Source: a phage
Direction: 5' to 3' (one strand)
DNA: 64,000 nt
Sequence record: PZ019086.1
Part shown: positions 2,757 to 63,055 of the stretch, piece after piece
Numbering within the stretch: position 1 is the first letter of the stretch
Layout: each line of letters opens with the position of its first letter
Program-made: the position numbers and the translations under genes
Notes under the pieces: model-generated
Databases searched by the model: none
The model's input: the letters and a program-made list of their open reading frames with translations, nothing else
What the model was told of the DNA's origin: nothing

Positions 2757-3089
2757 TTATTTTACTACTTTCCAGTGCTGCATGTCAAGTTTACCAACTT
2801 TTTTCATCTTCTCAATTAAGCGTTCGGCACGTTGGCGAGCTGTAACATAATACCATTCACCTAATTCATTTTGTTCAATTTTTCCAACGATTACTGTATT
2901 CAATTCATAAATCCAACCAGTAAAGAAATTATGAACTTGAATTGTAAAGGTGAAATCTGTTCCCATACCTTCTGTTGTTTCTACTTCAATAACATCACCT
3001 TCAACTGCCATTAAGAACCACATAGTTTCATCATATTTACCATTGAAGCATTTAGTTTTAACTGTGGCGTTCAGATTAATCGTTTTCAT
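2757..3089 (-). CDS. hypothetical early protein
   Basis: 110-codon ORF with AGGAG Shine-Dalgarno and promoter upstream. Confidence 0.45.
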   Translation of the reverse strand: MKTINLNATVKTKCFNGKYDETMWFLMAVEGDVIEVETTEGMGTDFTFTIQVHNFFTGWIYELNTVIVGKIEQNELGEWYYVTARQRAERLIEKMKKVGKLDMQHWKVVK

Positions 3090-3199
3090 TTTATTCTCCT
3101 TTGTTTGTGTAAGATAATACTATCACAAAGGAACTATACTGTAAACAACTTTATGCAATCTTTGGAAAATAAAAAAGGACTCCCGAAGGAGTCCTTAAC

Positions 3200-6257: not shown

Positions 6258-6793
6258 GTTGATCCCAGCTCCTTACTTTCAACGTTTTTAACTAATTTGA
6301 CAGAAACTAATTCGGCATCTTGGGTAATCATTACCGGGCCTTCTTCATACTCTTCAAGATATTCTAGAGCTTTCTTTTTAGCTTCTTCCTTCGTATCAGT
6401 TTGAGCATAGATATAAAACATACAACCAGTAATACCTACTACTTTCCACTTAATTTCTTTATCAGTTTTAATTTCAAATTTACTGATAGAGTCATCTTTT
6501 TGAACTTCTTCGAAAAAATAATATTCTGACATATAAGTAATTGAAAATAGCGGGCTATCTTTATAGCATTCACCCATTACATCAACAGCTTTATACCAGC
6601 AGTCATCAATTTCGCGTTTAATGCTAATAACATTTTTCGCAGGATCTATTTTTACTTTAAATGAATTTTCCCCAATAAACTGAGCAATTCGTTTATTAGC
6701 CCCGCAAGTTTCATTAAAAATATCTTTATATCCAGCTTTAAAGCGATAAACCTTATCTTCTTCAAACCATTCGCTCATTTTCAATTTCCTCAT
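6251..6793 (-). CDS. hypothetical early protein
   Basis: 180-codon ORF with own promoter upstream. Confidence 0.45.
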   Translation of the reverse strand: MRKLKMSEWFEEDKVYRFKAGYKDIFNETCGANKRIAQFIGENSFKVKIDPAKNVISIKREIDDCWYKAVDVMGECYKDSPLFSITYMSEYYFFEEVQKDDSISKFEIKTDKEIKWKVVGITGCMFYIYAQTDTKEEAKKKALEYLEEYEEGPVMITQDAELVSVKLVKNVESKELGSTC

Positions 6794-6809
6794 TTGTTTT
6801 GGTAGAGCT

Positions 6810-6839
6810 ATAATATCACAACTCTACCGTAAAGTAAAC
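6810..6839 (-). promoter_or_regulatory. early promoter (GTTTAC -35, TATTAT -10) with -10 inside an inverted repeat
   Basis: plus strand shows gtaaac at 6834-6839 and ataata 18 nt away; 7-bp inverted repeat GGTAGAG/CTCTACC at 6801-6828. Confidence 0.5.
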
Positions 6840-9240: not shown

Positions 9241-9590
9241 TTAGAAAGGTCCTGGATGTCTTCTGCGAACTTGTTGAAGGAGTTGTTGATTTGTTTTTCA
9301 ACCAATCCTGGCTTATGAGCCACCACATCCGCCTTCTTTGCGTCTTTGCGCAGTTTTTCATTTTCACGCTCAATAGCAGCAATTGCCTCACGATTTTTAT
9401 TATTCATCGCATCAATATAATTATACTGAATTCGCAAATTATTTAATGCTAAAGCGTTTTCATTGGCTGTTTTTGTAATTTCAGTAACCGATGTTTCTAA
9501 TCTTTCTACCTTATTTTTTAAAATAATAGATGTTCCGCCAAATGCTATTACAAGTAATAGCAATCCAGCTGTAAAATTACTTACATGCAT
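9237..9590 (-). CDS. inner-membrane spanin (i-spanin)
   Basis: N-terminal TM helix followed by charged coiled-coil-like segment; 117 aa; 4-nt overlap with lipoprotein ORF. Confidence 0.6.
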   Translation of the reverse strand: MHVSNFTAGLLLLVIAFGGTSIILKNKVERLETSVTEITKTANENALALNNLRIQYNYIDAMNNKNREAIAAIERENEKLRKDAKKADVVAHKPGLVEKQINNSFNKFAEDIQDLSK

Positions 9591-10087
9591 AAAGTTTTAA
9601 TAACCTCTACAATATCGTCTTGAGAAAGACCGTTAATTAAAATATGATGTTCAGCCGGAGATTTAGAAATTTTAAAGCATGCCTCAACATCTTCTGCCAT
9701 ATCCGATGCGCTACGATTTGGATTACTAATTCCAAGACGATGTTTTCCCGTTAAAGGATTAACGATGATATAGCATTTACAGTTGTTAATATGAACATTA
9801 GGTTGAGTCTGATTAATGAACACATCGCAATCATATTTCGCAAGCTGATTTTCTAAAAAGACTTTCATCTCCTCAACCGCATCAGGAAGCATATCGCGGG
9901 CTTGCTCAAGACGACGATTTCGATATTCTTTAATGGTCGTTTTCCGCTTGACTTGCTTAGCTAAATCTTTCTTAAGATCGGTGATATATCCAACTCGACG
10001 ATTTCCTTTAAATACAGAAATCCCATCTGTAGTATCACCGTATGCTTCAACGACCATCTCAGTAGTAATAAGCTGTAAATCCATCAT
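9581..10087 (-). CDS. alc: Alc-like host transcription elongation inhibitor
   Basis: 168 aa ORF at the T4 alc position between the spanins and rnlA. Confidence 0.65.
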   Translation of the reverse strand: MMDLQLITTEMVVEAYGDTTDGISVFKGNRRVGYITDLKKDLAKQVKRKTTIKEYRNRRLEQARDMLPDAVEEMKVFLENQLAKYDCDVFINQTQPNVHINNCKCYIIVNPLTGKHRLGISNPNRSASDMAEDVEACFKISKSPAEHHILINGLSQDDIVEVIKTLCM

Positions 10088-10115
10088 AAAGTCCTCATGT
10101 TATGTCAGTAAGACT

Positions 10116-10145
10116 ACTATAACACAACACGAGGGACTTGTAAAC
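10116..10145 (-). promoter_or_regulatory. early promoter upstream of alc
   Basis: GTTTAC -35 (plus gtaaac 10140-10145), 18-nt spacer, TATAGT -10. Confidence 0.45.
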
Positions 10146-18597: not shown

Positions 18598-18840
18598 TTA
18601 AACAGACTTTTTCACAATTTTCCAATCAGCTTTAAACTGTTCAACATCAGAATGGTAAATCCAAAACCCTGCGCTTTCTCCATCCTCATAAAGAGGACAT
18701 CTATCGCATTCATCTTCCCATCCCATATCACGCAAAAGACGTTCAGCTTTTTCAACAAGTTCAGAATCTTTACCGATGATATTAAAATACCATTTACCTC
18801 TAACTTCTGAATCTTTAATGCTCTGGCGTTGTAATCTCAT
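18598..18840 (-). CDS. hypothetical early protein
   Basis: 80-codon ORF with GGAG Shine-Dalgarno and promoter upstream. Confidence 0.4.
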   Translation of the reverse strand: MRLQRQSIKDSEVRGKWYFNIIGKDSELVEKAERLLRDMGWEDECDRCPLYEDGESAGFWIYHSDVEQFKADWKIVKKSV

Positions 18841-18894
18841 TTTATTCTCCTTAGTTGATAGGGTAATAGTATCACACTACTACCCTTCTGTAAA

Positions 18895-19275
18895 CTACTT
18901 TTTGAAAGTTTTTCGCAAAAGTTCAATGATTTCATCTACATTGTTTTCGTCTACAATGCAGTGAATTTTTGTTACGCCAGAAACCTTGTCTTTAGCTTCA
19001 TCTTCTTCAGAAGTCGGTTCTTTATACTCACGAAAACAATGAAATTCGTCTTCACAAATTTCTAAAAGTCTATCTTTGAGGTAAAAATGCTTTCCATTAG
19101 CGCATTCAATGTGTTTTACCGCTTTAAATCCATTAGCAAAGAAAGCTTCTTTAACTTCAAACCATCCGCCATTTTCTTGAATAATTTTAACTATTGACGC
19201 GTTAGATCGTGGGCTATAATTAATAAATGTATCAATAAGTCTTGGAACAAGCTCATACTTTTTGCCAATATACAT
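18895..19275 (-). CDS. hypothetical early protein
   Basis: 126-codon ORF. Confidence 0.45.
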   Translation of the reverse strand: MYIGKKYELVPRLIDTFINYSPRSNASIVKIIQENGGWFEVKEAFFANGFKAVKHIECANGKHFYLKDRLLEICEDEFHCFREYKEPTSEEDEAKDKVSGVTKIHCIVDENNVDEIIELLRKTFKK

Positions 19276-37281: not shown

Positions 37282-37311
37282 ATAGTACCACAGTATGCTT
37301 TGGTTGTAAAC
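37282..37311 (-). promoter_or_regulatory. early promoter for motA (repeated promoter module)
   Basis: GTTTAC -35 (plus gtaaac 37306-37311), 18-nt spacer, TACTAT -10. Confidence 0.5.
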
Positions 37312-37518: not shown

Positions 37519-38843
37519 TTGATTTCCTCTAAATCTTTAGTGTATTCTGTAACTACATCAGTAGTTTTCCAATATTCGTTTTCTTCTTTCTTAGCTTTAG
37601 CTTCTTCAGCAAGTTTCTTTGCTTCGTCGGAAGTCATATGAAAAATATTCATTCCGACTAGTTTATCAACATAAGAAGAATACATCTCAATTTTAGAAAG
37701 TTCTTCGGTCAGTTCTTTACGAGTTTTACCCTGCACAACAATTTCACCTGAAATTACTTTCTTAATGAAATGTGCCTTGGCAAAGGCTAAACGAAATGCT
37801 GATTCAGTTTCTTTGATTTTATTATCAATTCGTTTTTGGACATAAGTTTTACGAACTTCAACAAAGTCTTTGATTAAATCAACTACGTTATCGTAAACTT
37901 GTAGCTTTCCTTTCTCATTAATAACGGTGATATTCTGGGAACGACGCTCAATCAATCCAAAGTCTTTCATAATTTTTGCATGGCGTTCTTCTTCGTTATC
38001 GCTCAAAGAATATTCTTTACGGAATTTAACTTTGAAGCCAAAACCATGCTCACCGCAAGCATCATCCCATGTAATGAAGCCTTTATCTTCAAGCGGGTCT
38101 AAGATTTTACTCACGTAAGTTTCACGATCATACTTATATGGAATCTCAGTGATATTCATTTGAGTTCGTGAAGTAAACTTGTACGTTCCACGAATTTCAT
38201 ATTGACTGTCAATTTCAACGACTTCACCACGAAATTCTGGGAATTCTACCTTCGGTTTAGTTACTTTCTTTCCTTGAAGAGCTTGTAGTACAGCTTTCTT
38301 GACAGAAGAAACACTATGAGGAAGAATGTAAGTTGCATAACCAGTTGCAATACCGGAAACACCATTAAGAAGAACAGTAGGAATAATAGGCAAATAAAAA
38401 GCAGGCGGAATGTGTTCTTTATCTTGATGTACCGGAGCATATTCAGTATCTTTATATACACTATAGAAATTTTTACTTACACGGGCAAAAATATAACGAC
38501 TTGCCGCTGCTTTTTGAACGGTACGAGAACCAAAGTTTCCTTGACCATCTAACAAAGGAAAGTTATTATTCCAAGTGTTAGCCATCAAAGCACCTGCGTC
38601 TTGTGCAGAGATTTCACCATGATGATATCCAAGGTCTGCTACACCACCTGCGATAGAAGCGAGTTTGTGAAACTTATCTTTATTTCCTCGTGCCAAATCA
38701 AGAGCTCGAGCAATAACAAATCGTTGAACTGGCTTAAATCCATCAATCATATTTGGGATAGCACGATTTTCAACCGTGTACATAGCATAAGCCAATGCTT
38801 CATTATCAATGATACTTTTTAAATCGCGATTATTCAGTTGCAT
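37515..38843 (-). CDS. 52: DNA topoisomerase II medium subunit
   Basis: 442 aa; GyrA-like sequence with active-site Tyr region. Confidence 0.9.
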   Translation of the reverse strand: MQLNNRDLKSIIDNEALAYAMYTVENRAIPNMIDGFKPVQRFVIARALDLARGNKDKFHKLASIAGGVADLGYHHGEISAQDAGALMANTWNNNFPLLDGQGNFGSRTVQKAAASRYIFARVSKNFYSVYKDTEYAPVHQDKEHIPPAFYLPIIPTVLLNGVSGIATGYATYILPHSVSSVKKAVLQALQGKKVTKPKVEFPEFRGEVVEIDSQYEIRGTYKFTSRTQMNITEIPYKYDRETYVSKILDPLEDKGFITWDDACGEHGFGFKVKFRKEYSLSDNEEERHAKIMKDFGLIERRSQNITVINEKGKLQVYDNVVDLIKDFVEVRKTYVQKRIDNKIKETESAFRLAFAKAHFIKKVISGEIVVQGKTRKELTEELSKIEMYSSYVDKLVGMNIFHMTSDEAKKLAEEAKAKKEENEYWKTTDVVTEYTKDLEEIK

Positions 38844-38847
38844 AAAT

Positions 38848-38988
38848 TTACCATACTAGTGAATGTAGTGCCATAATAACATCAGAAATGAAAAGCACGA
38901 CTTGAATTAATCCGAACATTACTCCATAATATAGTGCTACCAATAAAGTAGCAAGGGCTAATGAATAGCCCAAGATTTTCTTAATCAT
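38848..38988 (-). CDS. small membrane peptide (about 46 aa), not in track
   Basis: MIKKILGYSLALATLLVALYYGVMFG...; start overlaps ac stop. Confidence 0.4.
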   Translation of the reverse strand: MIKKILGYSLALATLLVALYYGVMFGLIQVVLFISDVIMALHSLVW

Positions 38989-39139
38989 TAGTAGATAACA
39001 ACACAAATGTTAAATATGCACACATACCCTGGGCTAAAGCTTGCGAAAACACACTGCTAGCATCGATACAGATAGTTAAAACACATGCTACTATCCAACA
39101 AATAAATGAAATAACTCCTAATAATTTTGCGATATTCAT
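38981..39139 (-). CDS. ac: Ac-like small membrane protein (acridine sensitivity)
   Basis: about 52 aa hydrophobic ORF MNIAKLLGVISFICWIVACVLTIC... at the T4 ac position. Confidence 0.6.
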   Translation of the reverse strand: MNIAKLLGVISFICWIVACVLTICIDASSVFSQALAQGMCAYLTFVLLSTND

Positions 39140-39146
39140 ATTTTCC

Positions 39147-39227
39147 TCACTGGCGTCCGAAGACGCCTTTAGTTTTAAGATTGTTACGATAGAACTGCAT
39201 CACATGTTCGTTATGGAAATTACTCAT
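39147..39227 (-). CDS. stp: Stp peptide (26 aa)
   Basis: translates to [26 protein letters not shown], matching T4 Stp as I recall it; start overlaps ndd stop by 1 nt. Confidence 0.7.
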
Positions 39228-39682
39228 TAATATGCCTGCAAAACAAATTTAAAGTTATCAGCCAACATACGGTTCATTTCTTCAAGTGTTTGATACTCAG
39301 AATGATGATTACGAGTAAACGCCAAAGCTAACTGACCTTTTCCAAATCCTGTCGTCAAAGGTTTCATCTTAGAAGCAGGAAGATAAAATACTGCGTATGG
39401 AACATTGTTATTTGCAATAGTACGCGCAAGCTGAGACCGACGCTGACGAATATGACTTAGAACTGCACTGAATCCTTGCTTAGAACGCTGATTACCTACA
39501 TAAAATCGTGCAGATACACACGGACTATCAAATGGACCACCAAATTTGCTCACTAAAAAGTAAAATCCAGGATTAGACAAAATGTCTTTATGCGGAGTTC
39601 CAAAAACCCATTCACCGCCCTTGATTGTACCAATAACAGTTGCGCCTGCATTATTCAAATCAGTAACAGTCATATATTTCAT
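39227..39682 (-). CDS. ndd: Ndd nucleoid disruption protein
   Basis: 151 aa; matches T4 Ndd ([25 protein letters not shown]...). Confidence 0.85.
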
Positions 39683-39741
39683 GTTAATTTCCTCTAATTA
39701 TTTTCTACTCCAAGGCCGCATGAATACACACGGCCGATAAA

Positions 39742-39957
39742 TTAATCGTCGCAGTCGACGCTCAATTCCCAGAACTCTTCTACAGTATAAGTTTCAGTAT
39801 CATTTTCAATACAGAAACGTTCATTACTGTTGTTTGCTAAAGTAGCATTAACTGTCATTTTCTCACTAGTGCTCTTAAGAGGTGAAATACGAATTAACTG
39901 ATCACCATTATCCAAGCAAAAAATTTCGCCAACTTTTACATCTTTAAAAATTTTCAT
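39742..39957 (-). CDS. hypothetical early protein
   Basis: 71-codon ORF. Confidence 0.4.
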   Translation of the reverse strand: MKIFKDVKVGEIFCLDNGDQLIRISPLKSTSEKMTVNATLANNSNERFCIENDTETYTVEEFWELSVDCDD

Positions 39958-40072
39958 AATTCACCTCAGGGAGTATAAAATCCAAATGCAGTTGTCGACC
40001 ATCCCATCCAATATGGAAAATTTGCACCAACGTAAAACATGAGAATATAAAACCAACCACTCAGCAAATTTA

Positions 40073-40291
40073 TCATTTTACACCATTCCAAATTGTTTCA
40101 ACCACAGATTTTAAGCCATTTTGGTGAATATCCATTCCGACAACTGCCATCAAATAGATTCCAACTACAACTGAACCTAAGGCGAAAATCAGCATGAAAA
40201 TGAATAAAGCTGGAAAAATATTATCGAAAAACCATTCCATAAATGTAAAAGCACTGCGTTTACGCTTCATATTTTCCTCACATAAATCCAA
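40073..40291 (-). CDS. small membrane protein
   Basis: 72-codon ORF with two hydrophobic segments. Confidence 0.35.
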   Translation of the reverse strand: MDLCEENMKRKRSAFTFMEWFFDNIFPALFIFMLIFALGSVVVGIYLMAVVGMDIHQNGLKSVVETIWNGVK

Positions 40292-40391
40292 AGTAAGCGT
40301 TTAATACATCAATCATTAAAACGATTGGGAATATACTCAAAACTACTAGTATTATAACTACATTCCATATAGCTTTAACAATCTTTTTCAT
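40278..40391 (-). CDS. small membrane peptide (about 37 aa)
   Basis: track ORF trimmed to MKKIVKAIWNVVIILVVLSIFPIVLMIDVLNAYFGFM because the extension crosses a promoter. Confidence 0.35.
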   Translation of the reverse strand: MKKIVKAIWNVVIILVVLSIFPIVLMIDVLNAYFGFM

Positions 40392-40419
40392 TTTCTGTTC
40401 CTCCGTAGTTGATAGGGTA

Positions 40420-40449
40420 ATAATACCACAGAGGAACAGTCTTGTAAAC
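40420..40449 (-). promoter_or_regulatory. early promoter embedded in a 9-bp inverted repeat that also covers the downstream ribosome-binding site
   Basis: GTTTAC -35 (plus gtaaac 40444-40449), TATTAT -10; inverted repeat arms at plus 40395-40403 and 40431-40439. Confidence 0.5.
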
Positions 40450-40634
40450 AACTTTTTTAAAAATATTCGTAATAAATGTGAATACCAACTACTACTGCTG
40501 AAACTTGCACAACCCACCATGCACAAGCAATAAGTATAGAATTCAAAATTTTCATAATAACCTCATCACAAAAGTAAATGTTAAACAAATTAATGGAATA
40601 CTAATTAACCAAATAAAACACCACCACAATGAAC

Positions 40635-40898
40635 TCATAGTTCAATCTCAATGATTTCAAGATTATTTTCTTTAATAGCTTTCTTTAAATCATCGTAAAT
40701 AAGAACTTCCCAAGAATTGTTTAAATCGCCATTCAACAAACGCTCTTGTTGCAATTTATCAGTAAGATATGGTTGGTCTGATTCATATTTAGACAATCCC
40801 AATGAAATAAATGATGTTGCATCGTCAATTTCAGAATATTGTACATGAACAAATTCACCTGTGATTTTATGTTTAACATAAAAGAATTTAAATTTCAT
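40635..40898 (-). CDS. hypothetical early protein
   Basis: 87-codon ORF with promoter upstream. Confidence 0.4.
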   Translation of the reverse strand: MKFKFFYVKHKITGEFVHVQYSEIDDATSFISLGLSKYESDQPYLTDKLQQERLLNGDLNNSWEVLIYDDLKKAIKENNLEIIEIEL

Positions 40899-40917
40899 TT
40901 TTGTTCCTCTGTAGTTG

Positions 40918-40947
40918 ATAGTTGTATAGTACCACAGTCCTTGTGGT
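40918..40947 (-). promoter_or_regulatory. early promoter (repeated promoter module) with spacer hairpin
   Basis: GTTTAC -35 (plus gtaaac 40942-40947), spacer hairpin CCACA-gtcct-TGTGG, TACTAT -10. Confidence 0.5.
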
Positions 40948-40971
40948 ATGTAAACCGTTTTATGAAAATTT

Positions 40972-41529
40972 TTAAATGGAAAGATACCATCCGTTGTAGT
41001 TGCTTTTTCTTACAACTTTACGAAGGTCTTCTCTATCACCGATGAACTTCGGAGTGTACTGGATGACACCTGGATGAATTTCTTTAGTGTTGAATATAAT
41101 TATACAGTCAGCGACCTGATGATTCAGAATGGGCCCTAGATTTATTCCAGAACCGTATGGATACTCTCCGCTGCATCCGGTTGTTACCGAAATCCAGCGT
41201 GAGTCAGTTTGGTGTGTTTTGACTTCTACACGAAGCCCGCAATATCTTGGATGCGCCAATACATCCCATGCGTATGTATACGGGTCATTAACATCCTCTT
41301 GGCCTTTGTTAACATACCCGCTCAGCCAATCTGCTACAAAAAACTCTGCATACACAGCGATACGGCATCTTTCGATGACTTCTGCTTTATCCTGATTAGG
41401 ATTTTGTTTTAAAGAGTATCTTGCTGTATCAGCAATTTTGACCTTCATTTCACTAGTCAAATCATTGTTCGATAGGGTAAATGTTGGAATCTGAAATAGT
41501 CTCTGTAAACCCGGATTCGTTTTCTGCAT
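40972..41529 (-). CDS. denB: endonuclease IV
   Basis: 185 aa; matches T4 DenB. Confidence 0.85.
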   Translation of the reverse strand: MQKTNPGLQRLFQIPTFTLSNNDLTSEMKVKIADTARYSLKQNPNQDKAEVIERCRIAVYAEFFVADWLSGYVNKGQEDVNDPYTYAWDVLAHPRYCGLRVEVKTHQTDSRWISVTTGCSGEYPYGSGINLGPILNHQVADCIIIFNTKEIHPGVIQYTPKFIGDREDLRKVVRKSNYNGWYLSI

Positions 41530-41595
41530 TAAACTTTCCTTTTACGACGGAATCACTGATATTCATACAATAAATCATAGTTTCCCTTAAAACAA

Positions 41596-41611
41596 AAGGG
41601 CCGAAGCCCTT
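41596..41611 (-). other. intercistronic UUCG-tetraloop hairpin upstream of denB
   Basis: plus AAGGGC-CGAA-GCCCTT. Confidence 0.5.
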
Positions 41612-41615
41612 TATT

Positions 41616-41810
41616 TTATTTGAATTGTGCAATTCTTTTCTCTAAACAATCTGCGTAAGATTTCATTGAAATAAACTGCGAAAGTAACAGTTCTTGCTCA
41701 ACTGCATTAACCGTTGAAAACTTTTCACTTTCTAAAAATTTGCTCAGTGCATTAATTTTGAGCATTAATTGATCGTATTCTTCTTTTACTCGTGCTTGAT
41801 AACCTAACAT
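41616..41810 (-). CDS. hypothetical early protein
   Basis: 64-codon ORF flanked by tetraloop hairpins. Confidence 0.4.
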   Translation of the reverse strand: MLGYQARVKEEYDQLMLKINALSKFLESEKFSTVNAVEQELLLSQFISMKSYADCLEKRIAQFK

Positions 41811-41823
41811 AATTTTCCTCAGT

Positions 41824-41841
41824 TAAGGGCCGAAGCCCTTA
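41824..41841 (-). other. UUCG-tetraloop hairpin overlapping rIIB stop codon
   Basis: plus TAAGGGC-CGAA-GCCCTTA. Confidence 0.5.
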
Positions 41842-42777
41842 TTTAAATTGTTCAGTAACGTCTTCAACTACTTCGTATTGGCAGGTACGCATTTTAGCAT
41901 CGTTGTAATCAATCGGAATTGATACTACATCACGCGGATGCACTTTAACTTTTACAACTCGGCTGGTTGAACTGCCAAAGTGACGAATATAAGATTTAGA
42001 ACACACATGCAGACCACGAGAACAAGTTTGTGTATCATCGTCATTCACACGAGTACGTGGCATTTTAACTACTTTACCAGGACTGTTATCAAAGGTATTT
42101 GAATGACAGTCAAAGTAATTACTGCGAACTACTTTCCAAGCATAGAAGTAACCGTCTTCAGTAATTTCAATATCGTTTGCTACCAAGAAATCAAAGAGTC
42201 GAGATACCGCTTTTTGGCTCGGGTTTTCCAACAGATTTTCCAAGAACGGAAAATAAAATTCAAAGTTTTCACCTTTTTCCATCGAATCGAGAATACGATC
42301 AACTAAACCAGACCGCAATTCAATATTTTGATAGAACAAGCTTCCACCTTCAATTCGAACATCACCGGAAATATATTTTTCAACAGCGCGACGAACGTTA
42401 ATTTTTTGTGCCGCTTCTTCCAATTTATCTGCAACAAGCAGGTTAAGAATTTCCTGGAAGTTTGAATGAGTATTAGGAGTTGCGTTATAAGTTACGCCGT
42501 CAACAGTAATTGAAATGAATTTTTTAGATGCATTCCAAATAATGTCAGATTTAGCAACTGGAGCGATAGCTGTATCGCTATTAACTTTAACTGTAATGTC
42601 ACCGCTAATGGTAACTTTGGAGCGCTCAGCTTCTTCAGCATTTTTCAAAACACGACGGATTGTGTCCACCGATACACCTTGCCAATCAGCCAATTCCTGT
42701 TGGGTGTAATTACCACTTGAATACAGTTTGACAATTTCAGCTTGTTCGTTTTTGGTCAGGCATTTAATATTGTACAT
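41839..42777 (-). CDS. rIIB: rIIB
   Basis: 312 aa; matches T4 rIIB. Confidence 0.9.
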   Translation of the reverse strand: MYNIKCLTKNEQAEIVKLYSSGNYTQQELADWQGVSVDTIRRVLKNAEEAERSKVTISGDITVKVNSDTAIAPVAKSDIIWNASKKFISITVDGVTYNATPNTHSNFQEILNLLVADKLEEAAQKINVRRAVEKYISGDVRIEGGSLFYQNIELRSGLVDRILDSMEKGENFEFYFPFLENLLENPSQKAVSRLFDFLVANDIEITEDGYFYAWKVVRSNYFDCHSNTFDNSPGKVVKMPRTRVNDDDTQTCSRGLHVCSKSYIRHFGSSTSRVVKVKVHPRDVVSIPIDYNDAKMRTCQYEVVEDVTEQFK

Positions 42778-42788
42778 AATTTTCCTTA

Positions 42789-44966
42789 TTAGGCCGCAAG
42801 GGCCTTCATAGTTTTAGCGATTTGGGAAACTTCATCATCACTTAAAGAATTGCGATAACCGATGAAGTCGGAAACAATACGGAATTTCTTGGTAAACTCA
42901 GCAACCATTTTATCACTGTTTTTTAAAGCATTACGTGATAATTCATCAAAAAGATTAGTTACGGTCCAGATGTCATGACCGATGGTATCTTTTCCACCAT
43001 TGAAATATACACCCCGCAATGAACTAACCATATTACCAAGGCGAGTATATTCTTCGGAAACTTCATCTGTACTGAAATATTTCATCATAAAATTAAGTTC
43101 AGGATACTTAATAATTTTATCAATATATCGCTGAGCTGAACTTGAATAACCTACATACTTATCATAATCTACATCGTCAAAAGCATCTACATATAAATCA
43201 CGCAGAGTTTCAAAAATACATTGGCACTGACCAAGTTCTTTTACCTTTTTCTGTAAAAGTGGACGAATAACATAAAATTCATTAATGCCAATAAGATTAG
43301 CCATACGGGTCAAAATACTCGTAGATGGATTACAAAGCGATGTAGTACCATCCATAGAGAAAATATCAGAACGATGCATGTATGCTACATAACCAGTAAT
43401 TTCATCCGCTTCTGATGTGAGTGTAAGCAGTTCCTCTTTTTCCCAGCGTCCGTCTTTAATTTCAAACTTAAATGCAGTAGCAGCTTTAGGACGAGGAGCT
43501 GCGCTTTTTACCACCTTTGGAATATAACTTTTAACTAAAGCTTCGATTTCTGACAAATAATGAATGTTAACTTCATCACTTTCAAACATTGCCATAATAT
43601 CAGGGAGTAAATCAATCTGCGATTCTACTTCCGGATTAATAAACAGAAGACGCTCATTGTGATGAATATTTAAGGTGTTATTGAATTCACTATCATCTAA
43701 TGCACGTGCTAATCCACGGACAATATTAACACGATTTTTAATATTATCAATAACAATATTAATTTTTGTCGTATTAATACCAAACAGACGATAGCTTGAT
43801 GCAACGGCTGAAGTTTCATGGCTTTGCTTAATGCGTTTCAGTCGAGGGTCAAGATTTACTTCATACACAACCCCTGCATTGCATAGCTTACTATCTGGTT
43901 CAAACATGCTTTGCATCTTCTTATATGACAGATTTTTAGTCGTGAATTTGACTGAATTACTAATCATATAATCTCGAGCAGAATATCCCATCTTCATCAA
44001 TTCACGGTATGTATGACGAGGAGATGTAGATTCTTTAAATCGTTTTACATCTTCATTGAATGCCTTCTCACTAAGCTCTTTAACACGCTCAATAATATTT
44101 TTACGAGTACGATCATCTAGTGAAAGAGCCTCACGCGATGGAGCAATATCAAGTGAACCCATTGGAAACTTAATATAATTCACTTCATTGCGGATGCTTA
44201 ACCAGTTACGATCTCTAATAACACCTTCGATAGGATAAACAATACCGCCATAGATAGCATACAATCCACCACGATCTGGCCAGTATCTTTCTGGATTTAC
44301 GCCGTAATAGTCATCAAAATCCGGAAAATAATCAATTTCGCGGTCAAGACCATTAATGATAGCCAAATCTTTGAATGGTCGCATGATATAAGAAACTTCA
44401 TAAGCAAAGTTTCTAAAGTCTTTTTCTTCAACTGGAACTACAATTTCAATACCAGTTTTATCATCTGGACCCATTTCTTTTACGAATGTAGGTTTAATCT
44501 GCGGACCATCACCATCCATGTAAGCTACATAACCACGAATTTCGCCTTTATGATATGAAGTAATACTAAATGTATCAGTATAACTAAACGGAGATTTAGA
44601 ACCTAAACCAAATCCACCAATGAAATCGTTAGATTCAGCCTTAGATGAACTAAAGTATGAATTATACAACCCAGGAGAATTATCATCACCTTGAATATCA
44701 AAATCGCTCATACCCGGACCAAAATCTCGGCAAACAAATCGCGGATCTAATCGTCCTGGAACTTGAATAATAAATTTTTCAGGATTTCCATTGAGAGCAT
44801 GGGCATCAATCATGTTGGTAATCAATTCACGGACTACTGCGCGAATCTTGTTTGTATACAAATCAGATGACAGAATTTTGAATACTTTAGGAGATGCTGT
44901 GATGCTAAATGCTTTTGATTTAGAACCATTACCAAGAATTGTTTCTTTTTCAGTGGTGATAATCAT
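42789..44966 (-). CDS. rIIA: rIIA
   Basis: 725 aa; matches T4 rIIA with N-terminal ATPase-like region. Confidence 0.95.
42791..42805 (-). other. hairpin overlapping rIIA stop, upstream of rIIB
   Basis: plus AGGCC-GCAAG-GGCCT. Confidence 0.45.
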
Positions 44967-48575: not shown

Positions 48576-48749
48576 TACAATTTCCTCATTAATTGAACAT
48601 TGGAGCGATGCGTTTCAGAAGAGTGGCAGCACCTTTGGCAAATTTTCCATTTTATTCTCCAAGTTATTTTCTGTATCAGTAGTTGATATTGATATAGTAC
48701 CATAATCAACTACTGATGTATATAGTTTTATGAAAAAAAAAATTAAACT

Positions 48750-49247
48750 TTATGCACAGCGAGCTTTGCTATAGTGTTTAATCCAACTTTCAGGAATGAC
48801 TTTGTATGTTCCTAAAAATACTGCGTTGTACAACTTAACGCCATCTTCTACCCACTGATCGGTAATGTATGCACACATAGCGCGAGTACGATGTTTTTGA
48901 ACAACCCCTTCTTCGTCTTCGGTAAATTCAAATTCATAAGGAGCGACGAACTTAATAGCTTGACCGAGTTTCCACTTAAAGTCTACACCTACATGCGAAG
49001 TATCAATCGTTTCAATTCCTTTAGCAGGAACAGCTTTCAAAAACGCAGACTCAAGAAATTTCGCACGAACATAGCCAAACTGGGGTTTAGACTTTCCATC
49101 TTTAGGAATGATACGCACTTTTACTTCAGAATCTTCATCTTTAACACCGTGTTTAAGCTGAATGCTTACAATTTCAACCAATTTTCCTGCTGCTTTAGAA
49201 CGGGATTTATCAGATACACGAGCAATTTCACCAATATTAATAATCAT
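48750..49247 (-). CDS. hypothetical protein (motB position), paralog of next ORF
   Basis: 165 aa; C-terminal I-T-D-Q-W-V-E-D-G-V-K-L-Y-N-A-V motif shared with 49324-49866. Confidence 0.45.
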   Translation of the reverse strand: MIINIGEIARVSDKSRSKAAGKLVEIVSIQLKHGVKDEDSEVKVRIIPKDGKSKPQFGYVRAKFLESAFLKAVPAKGIETIDTSHVGVDFKWKLGQAIKFVAPYEFEFTEDEEGVVQKHRTRAMCAYITDQWVEDGVKLYNAVFLGTYKVIPESWIKHYSKARCA

Positions 49248-49323
49248 AGTTATCTCTCACTTGTTAAAAAGATTTTATACTCCGCGGGACCATTATACTC
49301 TGGTCCCAAGAGTTTGTAAACTA

Positions 49324-49868: not shown

Positions 49869-50408
49869 TTATCTCATTTCAATAAAATCTACAAGTTCAG
49901 CATGGGATTTACGGAACATTACTTGGTGCCCGCCAATGATAACTTCATCTTCAGGAACTTCGTATACAGCGAGATAAAATCCTTTAGAAGATAATTCTTC
50001 CCGCTCTTCTCGTGTGAACCATCTCATCATATCATATTCACTAGCGAAAGCAAAATGATAAAGAGCTATAAACCATCCTGGAATATGATATTCTACTCCA
50101 ACATAATCTTTCTTGAACTTAGTATTAATTACTATATTAGCGTTTTTAACTAATAGTTTATCTTCATGTGGTACAGGAATTCTTTTATTATCATCGCTAT
50201 GATGCATAAAATTAGGTCTACTATAACCTACACGTAATAGCCACTCTTCGCTCCATGAATCTATTATACTCCTGTACGGCGTTATTTGAACACAAAGATT
50301 TCGACGTATTGTTATAGCATCTTCATAATTAAGAATACTAAAAGATGATTCAACACGATAAATTTTCATTTTATTATCCTCAGTAGCTATGGTGTTATAA
50401 TACCACAA
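49869..50408 (-). CDS. hypothetical early protein
   Basis: 179-codon ORF with promoter upstream (gtaaac 50421-50426). Confidence 0.4.
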   Translation of the reverse strand: MWYYNTIATEDNKMKIYRVESSFSILNYEDAITIRRNLCVQITPYRSIIDSWSEEWLLRVGYSRPNFMHHSDDNKRIPVPHEDKLLVKNANIVINTKFKKDYVGVEYHIPGWFIALYHFAFASEYDMMRWFTREEREELSSKGFYLAVYEVPEDEVIIGGHQVMFRKSHAELVDFIEMR

Positions 50409-50432
50409 CTAACCGAGGAAGTAAACAACTTT

Positions 50433-54118: not shown

Positions 54119-54721
54119 TTATAGATTAAATCCTTCAAAATCAAGAGTATAGATAGTGTATGTTGAATACTTTTTATACTCGTATCTATCCGCAATTCTA
54201 AATACACTTCCAGCTGGTATCATTACTTCTTGTTCATCTGAAACTAATTCCATATTACGATAACGATGGCTATCTGGAAACTTAAAACTTGGACTATATT
54301 CTTTACAACGTAGAGCTTTTATAGCATACTCCTGGAAATTAAATACCATAGGAGCTTTGAATTCAAAAATAACTTGTGTGTTGTATTCTAATCCAGAAGC
54401 AAAATGTATAGCTATATTTTTATCATATGAAGCTGATACTACTTTATCAAATGTAATAATATCAATTCCTTGATTTAACACCTGCTTAGTCTCAACTGGA
54501 ACACCTCTCCAAAGAGGTTTATCGTTTGGTTCCAAACGAGATTTGATTATTTCATTTAACCAAGAATGATCGTCTGGCTTATTAGTAATACAATGAATTA
54601 AAAGTTCAATTTCGGATAAATTAAATCCTTCAGAAAGTAATTCTTCACGAATAGAAGCACGCACAGATGCATCCATTGATTTGATTTTAAAATCTTTTAA
54701 TTGCATTGCTGAATATTTCAT
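54119..54721 (-). CDS. modA: ADP-ribosyltransferase ModA
   Basis: 200 aa; R ... S ... E-Q-E-V pattern consistent with R-S-ExE ADP-ribosyltransferases. Confidence 0.8.
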   Translation of the reverse strand: MKYSAMQLKDFKIKSMDASVRASIREELLSEGFNLSEIELLIHCITNKPDDHSWLNEIIKSRLEPNDKPLWRGVPVETKQVLNQGIDIITFDKVVSASYDKNIAIHFASGLEYNTQVIFEFKAPMVFNFQEYAIKALRCKEYSPSFKFPDSHRYRNMELVSDEQEVMIPAGSVFRIADRYEYKKYSTYTIYTLDFEGFNL

Positions 54722-55341
54722 TCAACTACCTCAATATCATACACTTTAAATGTTCCAAATGAATCGTGTAATTTTTCTTTTGAAATAGAAGTTATTTTAT
54801 ACTTTCCAATTGGAATCATCCATTCTTGTTCACGTACAATCATCATTAAGTTATCAGTACGTTCTGAATCTAATCCATCAGTATCTTCATATGTATACTT
54901 AAACTCAGTATTAGGAGAAGAAAGTATAATATCGCTGATATGGTCAGAATAATTAAAAGCTTTATCAGTTTTTAAGCGAAATATTATTTCAGTGGAATAT
55001 TCAACATAAGAAAAACCACATGCTGTGTGCAAACTAGTAGTAAATGAATCTACTCTGTTCGTTGAAAACACTTCTCCAACTTGTAAATCTTTAATGAGTT
55101 CTTTTGTCGATTTTGATATACCACGATATAGCTGATAAGGCGATTTAGTTAAATGCTTTTTAACGATTTTATTCAACTGCTGATGAAGAGCTTCATTCTT
55201 TTTGGCTTCCATACATTGCCAAAGAATTGACTGTTCAAAGTCCGTAAATTTTTCACAGACCTTTTTATACATATCATATTGAAAATCAACACTTTCAGCT
55301 TTTATAGATAGCTGTTCAACATCTGCAAGATTAATAATCAT
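54718..55341 (-). CDS. modB: ADP-ribosyltransferase ModB
   Basis: 207 aa; paralog of ModA with E-Q-E-W motif. Confidence 0.8.
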   Translation of the reverse strand: MIINLADVEQLSIKAESVDFQYDMYKKVCEKFTDFEQSILWQCMEAKKNEALHQQLNKIVKKHLTKSPYQLYRGISKSTKELIKDLQVGEVFSTNRVDSFTTSLHTACGFSYVEYSTEIIFRLKTDKAFNYSDHISDIILSSPNTEFKYTYEDTDGLDSERTDNLMMIVREQEWMIPIGKYKITSISKEKLHDSFGTFKVYDIEVVE

Positions 55342-55366
55342 GATAGCCTCCGTATACTTCAGAAGC

Positions 55367-55397
55367 TATCATATCATTGTTAGGAAGGAAAGTAAAC
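55367..55397 (-). promoter_or_regulatory. early promoter for modB-modA
   Basis: GTTTAC -35 (plus gtaaac 55392-55397), 18-nt spacer, TATGAT -10. Confidence 0.45.
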
Positions 55398-57234: not shown

Positions 57235-57446
57235 TACAAAAAGCCTCTTTGAAATTCGACTCTTTGAAATCCACCCCAGTCAGTGTATCGCATTTCAGCA
57301 TTGAACTCGACTGAACCATCTGCATGCATCATGAATGAATGCGTGACGACATCACAATCCCAGCTTTTCATACCCCATTTATCAGCGATAGCTTTATCAA
57401 GAACCTTCTGGAGGTCTTCATTTGGTTTAATCCAACGATTTAACAT
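57234..57446 (-). CDS. hypothetical early protein
   Basis: 70-codon ORF with promoter upstream (gtaaac 57497-57502, TATAAT -10). Confidence 0.4.
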   Translation of the reverse strand: MLNRWIKPNEDLQKVLDKAIADKWGMKSWDCDVVTHSFMMHADGSVEFNAEMRYTDWGGFQRVEFQRGFL

Positions 57447-57543
57447 AGTGTTCTCCTCTATAAGATATTTTTATTATACCACACTCATTTTGACATGTAA
57501 ACCATAAAATGAAAAAAGGAATCCCGGAGGATTCCTTAAATTA

Positions 57544-61079: not shown

Positions 61080-61097
61080 TTTCTTTTCTCCGCGATT

Positions 61098-61140
61098 AGC
61101 TGATAGAATTACTATAACACAACTCTATCAGCTTGTAAAC
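61098..61140 (-). promoter_or_regulatory. early promoter with -10 inside a perfect 10-bp inverted repeat
   Basis: GTTTAC -35 (plus gtaaac 61135-61140), TATAGT -10; arms AGCTGATAGA (61098-61107) and TCTATCAGCT (61124-61133). Confidence 0.5.
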
Positions 61141-61142
61141 TA

Positions 61143-61427
61143 CTATTTTACTAGCATCAATAACTGTTTCTCTAACTTAATAATTTTACGAAAGTATCTT
61201 TTGCATTGACGAATCTGCCGCTTCGTAGGGCGCACAGCAAACTTAATAAATTCCACTCGACCAAATGGAGGACTTTCTTCTGGTGGAATATCTAACACCA
61301 ATTCCCACGTATCTGCAACAAGTGCTTTGAATTGAGTATTTTTCCTGACATTATACGGAGTAGGTTTAAATAAAGCAATATGCATATTATCCTCGGCAAT
61401 CCACTTCACATACTTTCTTGTCATCAA
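61143..61427 (-). CDS. hypothetical early protein
   Basis: 94-codon track ORF; an internal Met (MHIALFKPT...) would give about 80 aa abutting the next gene. Confidence 0.4.
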   Translation of the reverse strand: MMTRKYVKWIAEDNMHIALFKPTPYNVRKNTQFKALVADTWELVLDIPPEESPPFGRVEFIKFAVRPTKRQIRQCKRYFRKIIKLEKQLLMLVK

Positions 61428-61569: not shown

Positions 61570-61591
61570 AACAATCTCCTAATTTAACCAA

Positions 61592-61628
61592 CAAGACTAC
61601 TATACCATAGTCTTGTCAGCTTGTAAAC
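61592..61628 (-). promoter_or_regulatory. early promoter with -10 inside an 8-bp inverted repeat
   Basis: GTTTAC -35 (plus gtaaac 61623-61628), TATAGT -10; arms CAAGACTA/TAGTCTTG at 61592-61615. Confidence 0.5.
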
Positions 61629-63055
61629 TAAAATTTTAATTCGTTTGCTAAAGCATCTAACTGGGCTCGAGTAGATTCATTTCTTTGATAGCGATTCTGT
61701 TCAGCTTGTATCTGTTGTGAACCTGCTACTTCGTTCACTTCGGTTGGAGTAGAATCTTGCTCAATTTCTACCCATTTTTGATTTCCTTTTTGAACACCCA
61801 TCAAAAACTTATTCCATTTATTCTTATCACCATATCGTGATTTGATTTGCTTAATGAGTTGTTGTTCAGCAGCTGCTAACTCCTCGGTTTCAATGACCGC
61901 AAGCATAAAATCGGCTGTTGCTGGAAGCCCGGCAGATTCCGCAATATCGCTCATGTTAACATCAGAAGAATCCCAAGCTTGTTTACCAACCTGTGCTGCA
62001 GTCCAAAGAACAGTTTCAGTTTCAACAGCCAGAGCACGCAATTCTTCTGCGATGGCTTTAACAGTTGTGTAACTATTTTCTGAATAAACTCTGATGCGGC
62101 AAGATTTACAAATACCCAGATAGTCAACAATAATGATTGTTGGAACAAAATTCTTCTTGAGCTTTAATTCATTTAAAAGCGACCGAAATGTATTAGCGTC
62201 TGCTCCACCAGTGGGATACTGTTTAACGATTAAACGGCCGAGAGTAGATTTCTCACGCCATTTTTCCATTTTTCCTTTATACTCAGCGTAAGAAATATGC
62301 CCATCATCAATGTCATCAAGAGAAACATCGAGCATATTAGCGTCAATACGCTTAGCACAGACTTCTTCTGCCATTTCCATTGAAATGTAAAGAACATTAT
62401 GACCGAGCTGCAAATAATCTGCTGCCAATGAACACAGACCTAATGACTTGCCAACGTTAACACCAGCCATTAAAACGTTCAGTGTTCCAGTTTCAGCTCC
62501 GCCTTTAGTAATTTTATTTAGAATTTTGAGTTTAAATGGAACCTTACGAGCTTTATTCATATAAGATAGCCAACGTGCTTCGTAGTCATCCATCCAATCA
62601 TGACCAACGTAACTATCAAATGAAATTGATAATGCTTGGCGCATGATGTCAGGAATAGCACCTACATCTGGCATTTTCTTATTGCGTTTTTCCGGAGGAA
62701 GCTCAGCATTGGTTTGAATTTCAATTATTTTAGATGTGGCGTTAAACATCGCCCTTTGCTGAACATATTTTTCTGTTTCTTTTACTAACCAGCTGTGGTC
62801 TTCTGGAGAATCGGTTAGTTTCGAAATAAGTGTTTTTACACCAGAATATTCTGTTTCAGTAAATGAACTATTTTCTAACGCAACATTTAACGCATTAATA
62901 GATGGAACGCTATGGTACTCATTAACATGAGATTTAATTAATTTGAATGTATTTTTAGCTGGACCACTTTCAAAATATTCTGAATCCATATATGGCCAAA
63001 CTTTTGAAAAATAAGCTTGATCAAATATGAGATGAGAAAGAATAATTTCTACCAC
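61628..63055 (-). CDS. 41: replicative DNA helicase gp41 (DnaB-like)
   Basis: 475 aa; Walker A G-V-N-V-G-K-S; matches T4 gp41. Confidence 0.95.
   Translation of the reverse strand: MVEIILSHLIFDQAYFSKVWPYMDSEYFESGPAKNTFKLIKSHVNEYHSVPSINALNVALENSSFTETEYSGVKTLISKLTDSPEDHSWLVKETEKYVQQRAMFNATSKIIEIQTNAELPPEKRNKKMPDVGAIPDIMRQALSISFDSYVGHDWMDDYEARWLSYMNKARKVPFKLKILNKITKGGAETGTLNVLMAGVNVGKSLGLCSLAADYLQLGHNVLYISMEMAEEVCAKRIDANMLDVSLDDIDDGHISYAEYKGKMEKWREKSTLGRLIVKQYPTGGADANTFRSLLNELKLKKNFVPTIIIVDYLGICKSCRIRVYSENSYTTVKAIAEELRALAVETETVLWTAAQVGKQAWDSSDVNMSDIAESAGLPATADFMLAVIETEELAAAEQQLIKQIKSRYGDKNKWNKFLMGVQKGNQKWVEIEQDSTPTEVNEVAGSQQIQAEQNRYQRNESTRAQLDALANELKF

Follow-up and report, generated by a model that had tools for sequence, protein, structure and literature searches.

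A stable hairpin pairs the spacer of an early promoter with the ndd.4 Shine-Dalgarno sequence and may insulate its translation in T4-type phages

The window analyzed here (PZ019086.1), a stretch of 64,000 nucleotides, is from a Tequatrovirus with a T4-type genome, and a 501-base query placed around the hairpin described below matched 499 phage records at 90-99% identity. On the minus strand the genes are ordered as in T4 (rIIB, denB.1, denB, ndd.6, ndd.5, ndd.4 ... ndd, stp, ac, 52.1, 52), and the coordinates of the features discussed are collected in Table 1. The initial annotation had reported a short membrane ORF of 37 codons with a start at about 40391 beside an inverted repeat; this ORF was identified as ndd.4, with its start at 40391 and a hydrophobic product. 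The analysis gave no support to the suggestion of the initial annotation that the peptide is potentially toxic. Homologues of ndd.4 occur in about 597 phage records and were sampled in four genera, the match in Marfavirus being marginal.

In the T4 reference, ndd.4 is annotated with 42 codons, beginning at an ATG (T4 166762-166764; L001 3263-3265) that lies within the 3' arm of the hairpin and overlaps the Shine-Dalgarno (SD) sequence (ATGGAGGAACAGAAAATG). The triplet opposite this upstream ATG is ACG in the window (40404-40406) and also in most relatives, so the true start of ndd.4 is almost certainly the downstream ATG (37 aa), located 8 nt past the GGAGG. Other differences from T4 were observed on both sides of the gene. 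Downstream, positions 40073-40270 (minus strand) hold a single 65-aa ORF (phrog_2401, 'periplasmic protein') where T4 has ndd.3 (26 aa) and ndd.2a (40 aa); T4 is one G short near the start of this ORF (ATGAACGTAAAC vs ATGAAGCGTAAAC), which gives the T4 ndd.3/ndd.2a pair the look of one gene split by a frameshift. Upstream, between denB and ndd.6, an 87-aa ORF (40635-40898, minus strand; phrog_2390) is missing in T4, which retains a remnant of 8 codons (MKIAEIEL*) with identical final codons. The 87-aa ORF is flanked by related promoter-leader cassettes at 40955 and 40449, an arrangement that fits cassette-mediated gain or loss, and a cassette of this kind, roughly 50 nt long, is also present at 37311 (motA) and 19620 (frd.3). 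Further upstream, between denB.1 and denB, a perfect GC-rich palindrome (AAAGGGCTTCGGCCCTTT, 41595-41612) carries T-runs on both strands. It has the appearance of an intrinsic terminator acting in both directions and, as such, would restrict read-through from rIIB.

Table 1 Features of the ndd.4 locus, stems of related genera and stems at other early promoters. Positions are those of the window.
Feature	Position	Strand	Remarks
ndd.5, upstream cistron	40457..40555	-	stop codon 40459-40457
A-tract 5' of -35	40458-40453	-	overlaps ndd.5 stop codon
-35 GTTTAC of ndd.4 early promoter	40444..40449	-	sigma-70 register TTTACA 40448-40443
Extended -10 TGgTATTAT	40420..40428	-	TATTAT 40425-40420; spacer from -35 = 18 nt
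Hairpin 5' arm CUGUUCCUCUGUGGU	40425..40439	-	promoter spacer, into TGn and first T of -10; includes anti-SD CCUC(U)
Hairpin loop, 15 nt	40410..40424	-	most of -10 and predicted start A40413
Hairpin 3' arm ACUACGGAGGAACAG	40395..40409	-	contains GGAGG SD (40404-40400)
ndd.4 CDS	40278..40391	-	ATG 40391-40389, stop at 40278; 37 aa, one hydrophobic helix, phrog_3098 (function unknown)
Pndd.3-equivalent middle promoter	40344..40356	-	-10 TATAAT 40356-40351; T4 start 166702 aligns to window 40344
Upstream early promoter GTTTAC-N18-TACTAT	40926..40955	-	drives 87-aa ORF, ndd.6, ndd.5
Gaprivervirus ndd.4 stem			5' arm CAUCUCC(A/G)GUGGUUG; 3' arm CAACUACUGGAGAUG; about -27 kcal/mol
Dhakavirus ndd.4 stem			5' arm CAUCUCCAUUA(G); 3' arm (C)UAAUGGAGAUG; -19 to -23 kcal/mol
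Kanagawavirus ndd.4 stem			5' arm = -35 itself, GUGUUUAC.UCCAUU; 3' arm AAUGGA.GUGAAUAU, reaching AU of AUG; -17.7 kcal/mol
alc stem	10081-10145	-	promoter GTTTAC-N18-TATAGT; ORF 9581-10087; -24.4 kcal/mol
modB stem AUGAUAGCUUCUG / CGGAGGCUAUCAU	55341-55397	-	promoter GTTTAC-N18-TATGAT; ORF 54718-55341
motB.2 stem UCCUCGGU.UAGUUGUGGU / ACCAUAGCUACUGAGGA	50369-50426	-	-23.7 kcal/mol
30.8 stem	3089-3146	-	-12.1 kcal/mol
mrh.2 region	57446-57502	-	opening cost from T4 locus only
dmd	61575-61650	-	early-promoter spacer or -35 region pairs SD; SD partly covered only
Non-SD stems	2688-2754, 6793-6839, 18840-18895, 49247-49321, 48660-48760, 61095-61160	-	

The ndd.4 promoter is a textbook T4 early promoter, GTTTAC-N18-TGgTATTAT, which agrees with sigma-70 at 10 of 12 positions, carries a TGn in addition and was the top match in a 4.2-kb scan (38800-43000). 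Across the window, sites of the form GTTTAC-N17-19-TAnnnT number about 19 on the minus strand, where the early genes lie, and 0 on the plus strand; this restriction to one strand serves as an internal control that the sites are real, and the architecture of the ndd.4 promoter recurs at at least 15 minus-strand sites. Judged from consensus spacing, transcription is predicted to start at A40413, 7 nt past the -10 and within the hairpin loop. The late promoter motif TATAAATA was not found in 40520-40300. The promoter at 40955, whose own leader lacks an SD hairpin, would be the nearest source of read-through RNA carrying both arms, and a terminator scan between it and ndd.4 revealed no terminator-like site. 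A further promoter lies inside ndd.4: Pndd.3 is a mapped T4 middle promoter with its start at T4 166702 (Hinton 2010, Table 1, PMC2988021), and its position means that middle transcripts for the downstream genes would begin past the ndd.4 start codon.

The inverted repeat reported by the initial annotation is formed by CTGTTCCTC (40395-40403, plus strand) and GAGGAACAG (40431-40439), which are indeed exact reverse complements, and the two-arm pattern matches just once in the window against 0.01 expected. It had been taken for a 9-bp stem; the pairing is real, but the full helix is 15 bp long. In minus-strand RNA, 40439-40425 pairs with 40409-40395, two of the pairs being G·U, around a 15-nt loop. 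A perfect 9-bp inverted repeat alone is not rare (49 seeds with loops of 3-40 nt in the window vs about 18 in mononucleotide shuffles), and it is the full helix that stands out. Its free energy of -23.2 kcal/mol compares with -8.8 ± 2.5 kcal/mol for shuffled sequences (z = -5.8), none of the 200 shuffles being as stable, and it ranks about ninth among 25,576 60-nt windows from both strands, in the company of terminators; only 0.07% of 60-nt windows attain -23 kcal/mol. Each pair of the stem forms with a probability of 0.90-1.00 in a 401-nt context. An intrinsic terminator could be excluded as no U-tract follows the stem, where the next sequence is GAAAAUGAAAAAG / AAAAUGAAAAAG, and the stem is absent from the list produced by the terminator scan. 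Rfam covariance models gave no match at E<=1 across 38500-43000.

Both placements proposed at the outset for the arms were borne out over the longer helix. The GGAGG of ndd.4 is inside the 3' arm, and the 5' arm is situated between GTTTAC (40449-40444) and TATTAT (40425-40420) of the gene's own promoter. With the predicted start in the loop, a transcript from this promoter would carry the 3' arm only and be unstructured (dG 0). The calculated probability that the SD is unpaired is at most 0.002 in read-through RNA (401-nt context), as opposed to 0.54-0.88 in RNA beginning at 40413.

Relatives were sampled by tblastn against a phage collection, from which 21 ndd.4 loci were taken, and a coding-anchored pattern scan of viral contigs returned just five loci, all near-identical. 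The stem is retained in 11 of 11 distinct Tequatrovirus sequences, including T4, T2 and T6, at -20.5 to -24 kcal/mol. All internal substitutions within this genus are of the C/U type opposite G and hence wobble-compatible, two of them in the 5' arm and one in the 3' arm. The terminal pair is the sole pair ever lost. In Gaprivervirus, Dhakavirus and Kanagawavirus, the promoter's own spacer or -35 likewise pairs with its own SD, with sequences and registers that differ between them, and the 3' arm includes the SD in all four genera despite the changed arm sequence and register. When 5' and 3' regions were combined in a cross-duplex matrix, each 5' region bound the 3' region of its own genus best (Tequatrovirus, -23 to -25 vs -6 to -12 for the others). 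The Marfavirus homologue has a hairpin that runs from spacer to leader and does not cover the SD.

Plain MAFFT alignment brought the promoters into line while the helix registers differed, leaving no single consensus structure that could be scored, and an SD-anchored alignment was used instead. In this alignment, which is fitted to the structure and holds 13 sequences in only four clades, 88.7% of cells pair, compared with 69% in shuffles (0 of 500 reach the observed value) and 38-60% in slid controls, and both sides have changed at 10 of the 15 pairs. Of 10 representatives, 8 have a sense strand that, owing to its G·U pairs, folds more stably than the antisense strand; this points to selection on the mRNA and not on a DNA palindrome or cruciform. 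A DNA cruciform is thus unlikely, as is a protein-binding palindrome, since the arm sequences vary while their complementarity persists.

This comparative evidence supports the model put forward in the initial annotation, and the hairpin is probably an insulator of translation embedded in an early promoter, by which the ndd.4 SD would be hidden in read-through RNA and free in RNA from the gene's own promoter. RNA started upstream, at the promoter at 40955 or as rIIB/denB transcripts, would carry both arms; the 15-bp stem would then bury the ndd.4 SD and keep 30S subunits off. Polymerase at ndd.4's own promoter would instead start in the loop, producing RNA with the 3' arm alone and an open translation start. 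Synthesis of Ndd.4 would in this way be tied to the firing of its own immediate-early promoter and not to the summed read-through from upstream, and in later RNAs the ndd.4 cistron would be either silent or missing. T4 early promoters are shut off within minutes. The free GGAG SDs of early mRNAs are moreover targets of RegB, and structure protects such sites (PMC3014915). Early shut-off and RegB targeting, together with the position of Pndd.3 inside ndd.4, lead us to expect Ndd.4 in an early pulse that is brief and limited in dose. Because the internal promoter is of the early sigma-70 type and not late, a pulse or insulation from upstream promoters would be expected in place of a delay. The upstream promoter at 40955 is also early, so much of the read-through RNA would be made simultaneously with the gene's own transcript, and dose insulation could be as important as timing.

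The initial annotation had drawn an analogy with T4 lysozyme (e). Promoter-in-hairpin logic is experimentally established for T4 e and I-TevI, with soc and 49 listed as further cases (PMC3014915). In T4 e, soc, 49, I-TevI/II/III and segB, and in Aeh1 mobE, a stable stem holds the SD and/or AUG in its 3' arm; in the e-type cases transcripts that start inside the hairpin lack the 5' arm, and longer ones begun upstream are silent in translation (PMC3014915, PMC2988022). The logic of the analogy holds. As in the type represented by e, soc, 49 and I-TevI, the ndd.4 SD is paired in a stable local stem of the long RNA; the promoter, here an early one, has its -10 in the loop and its predicted +1 between the arms. 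The promoter class does not carry over: those genes use late (gp55, TATAAATA) promoters, whereas ndd.4 uses an early sigma-70 promoter, and its 5' arm, unlike that of the e type, lies inside the promoter spacer itself. No description of an SD hairpin at an early promoter was found in the searchable literature, a scope outside which older T4 promoter papers fall. The T4 cases described in that literature are all late, and ndd.4 would thus follow a known logic and be new in using an early promoter for it.

To place ndd.4 among other T4 genes, the opening cost, i.e., the free energy required to free positions -13 to +3 in a -85 to +12 context, was calculated for 109 curated T4 gene starts. Opening energy was adopted because mean pairing probability over the start separated no genes, known controls included. 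The median cost was 3.8 kcal/mol. The highest values belonged to alc (17.2 kcal/mol), modB (16.6 kcal/mol; own transcript, 1.8) and, third of the 109, ndd.4 (16.3 kcal/mol; own transcript, 1.1), each with an early promoter directly upstream. The cost for ndd.4 exceeds that of I-TevI (13.9 kcal/mol) and soc (8.9 kcal/mol), the two experimentally established T4 cases among the 109; these late-promoter genes, included as controls, occupy the same upper tail as ndd.4. The remainder of this tail was made up of 39.1 (13.3 kcal/mol), motB.2 (12.6), cd.5 (10.7), 30.8 (10.5), ndd.5 and mrh.2 (both 9.7) and ac (9.1), an early promoter being situated directly upstream of motB.2, 30.8 and mrh.2. With a threshold of 8 kcal/mol, which was picked post hoc, 6 of 17 early-promoter-proximal genes and 6 of 92 others lie above it (Fisher p = 0.003). 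For all six early-promoter genes, the transcript from the gene's own promoter has an opening cost of only 0.1-2.9 kcal/mol. The costs of 9-13 kcal/mol at 39.1, cd.5, ndd.5 and ac occur where no early promoter is recognizable directly upstream, and coupling stems or other promoter classes are possible explanations there.

A design like that of ndd.4 is present at alc, modB, motB.2, 30.8 and mrh.2. At alc, the spacer and -10 (AAGUCC.UCGUGUUGUGUUAU) pair with ACAUAACAUGAGGACUU and bury the SD; this stem is kept with different arms in JS98 (Dhakavirus), a Karamvirus and a Klebsiella phage, and is absent in a Mosigvirus. The modB stem buries both SD and AUG, with a 5' arm extending from the -10 to near the predicted +1. 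Outside Tequatrovirus, modB orthologues are confounded by modA/modB paralogy (<45% identity). At motB.2, 30.8 and mrh.2 (the last in T4), the SD of the driven gene is paired by the spacer or -35 region of its early promoter. In the window, the promoter at 57502 in the mrh.2 region drives a different 70-aa ORF and the fold is weak (-4.2 kcal/mol). Over 15 promoters, spacer and leader taken from the same promoter paired better than swapped combinations (permutation p about 0.002). We tentatively suggest that alc, modB, ndd.4, motB.2, 30.8 and mrh.2 might form an unrecognized class of immediate-early genes of the T4 group, in which an anti-SD in the sigma-70 promoter of the gene itself, within its spacer or -35, would tie translation to that promoter.

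Stems that do not cover the SD were observed as well, at the early promoters of 30.7, the cd.2 region, frd.1, motB, cef and 61.4 (-16 to -24 kcal/mol). Here the 5' arm is in the spacer, the 3' arm just past the -10, and the -10 in the loop. These may be the T4 counterpart of the PeSL (promoter-early stem-loop) stems of RB49, and their presence at several early promoters means that such stems may have another, more general role.

PeSL stems of RB49 and phi1 overlap early promoters, in RB49 often between -35 and -10 or over the -10, and have been taken for terminators or attenuators and for sites of recombination, with translation or SD sequestration never mentioned (PMC2839356). The ndd.4 hairpin could accordingly be read as the stem-loop of a PeSL cassette that attenuates or terminates upstream transcription and provides homology for recombination, its effect on the SD being incidental. 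One stem-loop studied by Arbiol et al. cut the expression of a lacZ transcriptional fusion as much as a good terminator does (PMC2839356), and Comeau et al. (2014) name the ndd.4/.5 locus (Fig. 6A) and assign PeSLs to the T4-PST exchange there (PMC4122927). The resemblance extends to organization. The ndd.4 unit is a compact intergenic cassette with an AT-rich tract, strong sigma-70-like -35 and -10 elements, a stem-loop, and SD and ATG; it lies in a hyperplastic region with related copies at 40955, 37311 and 19620, adjoins an indel relative to T4 (the 87-aa ORF), and has a leader (CTATCAACTAC..GAGGAACA) in common with the 40955 cassette. Many neighboring early promoters, too, have stems at the -10 that lack the SD. 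However, the 3' arm at ndd.4 is the SD and, unlike in PeSLs, no U-tract comes after it (GAAAAUGAAAAAG), the terminator scan being silent at this site. The SD is always in the 3' arm across four genera, which a pure terminator would not need, and the stems of T4 and PST are drawn upstream of the promoter, not spanning it (PMC4122927). We regard a PeSL stem with an incidental effect on the SD as an unlikely explanation, though one to be weighed.

Alternatively, the stem could be an RNase shield that conceals the GGAG in the ndd.4 SD from RegB (or RNase E) and spares the long RNA for ndd.3 to ndd, with silencing of ndd.4 as a side effect. As at RegB-sensitive early SDs, the GGAG of ndd.4 is followed by an A-rich tract; the site GGAGGAACAGAAAA nearly matches, with a single additional base, and 30.8, which has the same hairpin design, offers a perfect match (GGAGAATAAAA). 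To the consensus of strong RegB sites, GG*AGRAYARAA, ndd.4 (GGAGGAACAGAA) fits only with a one-base insertion, and only its own transcript would leave the site unstructured. A middle promoter inside ndd.4 serves the downstream genes, which leaves less need of protection for the long RNA, and the SDs of Gaprivervirus and Dhakavirus (GGAGAUGAUU) are a poor fit to the A-rich RegB consensus although the stem is still kept there. Protection from RegB as the main purpose appears rather improbable on these grounds; it is compatible with translational insulation and does not compete with it exclusively.

Translational coupling, in which ndd.4 would be silent on polycistronic RNA unless ribosomes on an upstream small ORF melted the stem, draws on the relatives. 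In Kanagawavirus CIP9/MY742 (locus positions about 585-690; L009, L014), an unannotated ndd.6-like ORF spans the -35 and the 5' arm and ends at a TGA directly before the -10. Ribosomes on this ORF would melt the stem, and coupling by the hairpin is plausible in that genus. The upstream stop codon in Gaprivervirus and Dhakavirus is just 9 nt before the stem. Against this, 17 nt separate the ndd.5 stop from the hairpin base downstream of it in both the window and T4, so a terminating ribosome, from whose reach the stem is removed, should not open its 15 bp (-23 kcal/mol), and coupling is very unlikely as the general explanation. Chance, or a side effect of two motifs that are conserved (TGTGGTA of early promoters and the CAACTAC leader), would find room in the 49 perfect 9-bp seeds of the window and in the inner five pairs (GUGGU/ACUAC), which unite motifs recurring at several promoters, but is highly improbable given that the outer ten pairs, anti-SD and SD included, are peculiar to the ndd.4 promoter, that same-promoter pairing beats swaps over the 15 promoters, that the cross-genus matrix is strongest on its diagonal, and that double-sided changes occur at 10 of 15 pairs.

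Translational insulation by the promoter-spanning hairpin, the reading we favor, concerns temporal gene control, for which T4 serves as the reference system. Promoter-containing hairpins known so far all delay late genes; a version at an early promoter would act differently, and would explain how a brief, fixed dose can be delivered at the onset of infection despite very strong upstream promoters. It is an old and loosely explained observation that production of numerous early proteins halts abruptly. The design seen at ndd.4, which is also found at the host-takeover genes alc and modB, bears on this halt. If the proposed class is real, it would constitute a general translational insulator in promoter-dense early regions, where each cistron's own promoter would determine its output, which would be restricted to the first minutes, and the stems of the class would also hide GGAG sites from RegB in long RNAs. 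Overall, the early-promoter stem-loops of T4-type phages, hitherto seen as terminators and recombination sites, would gain a second, translational reading.
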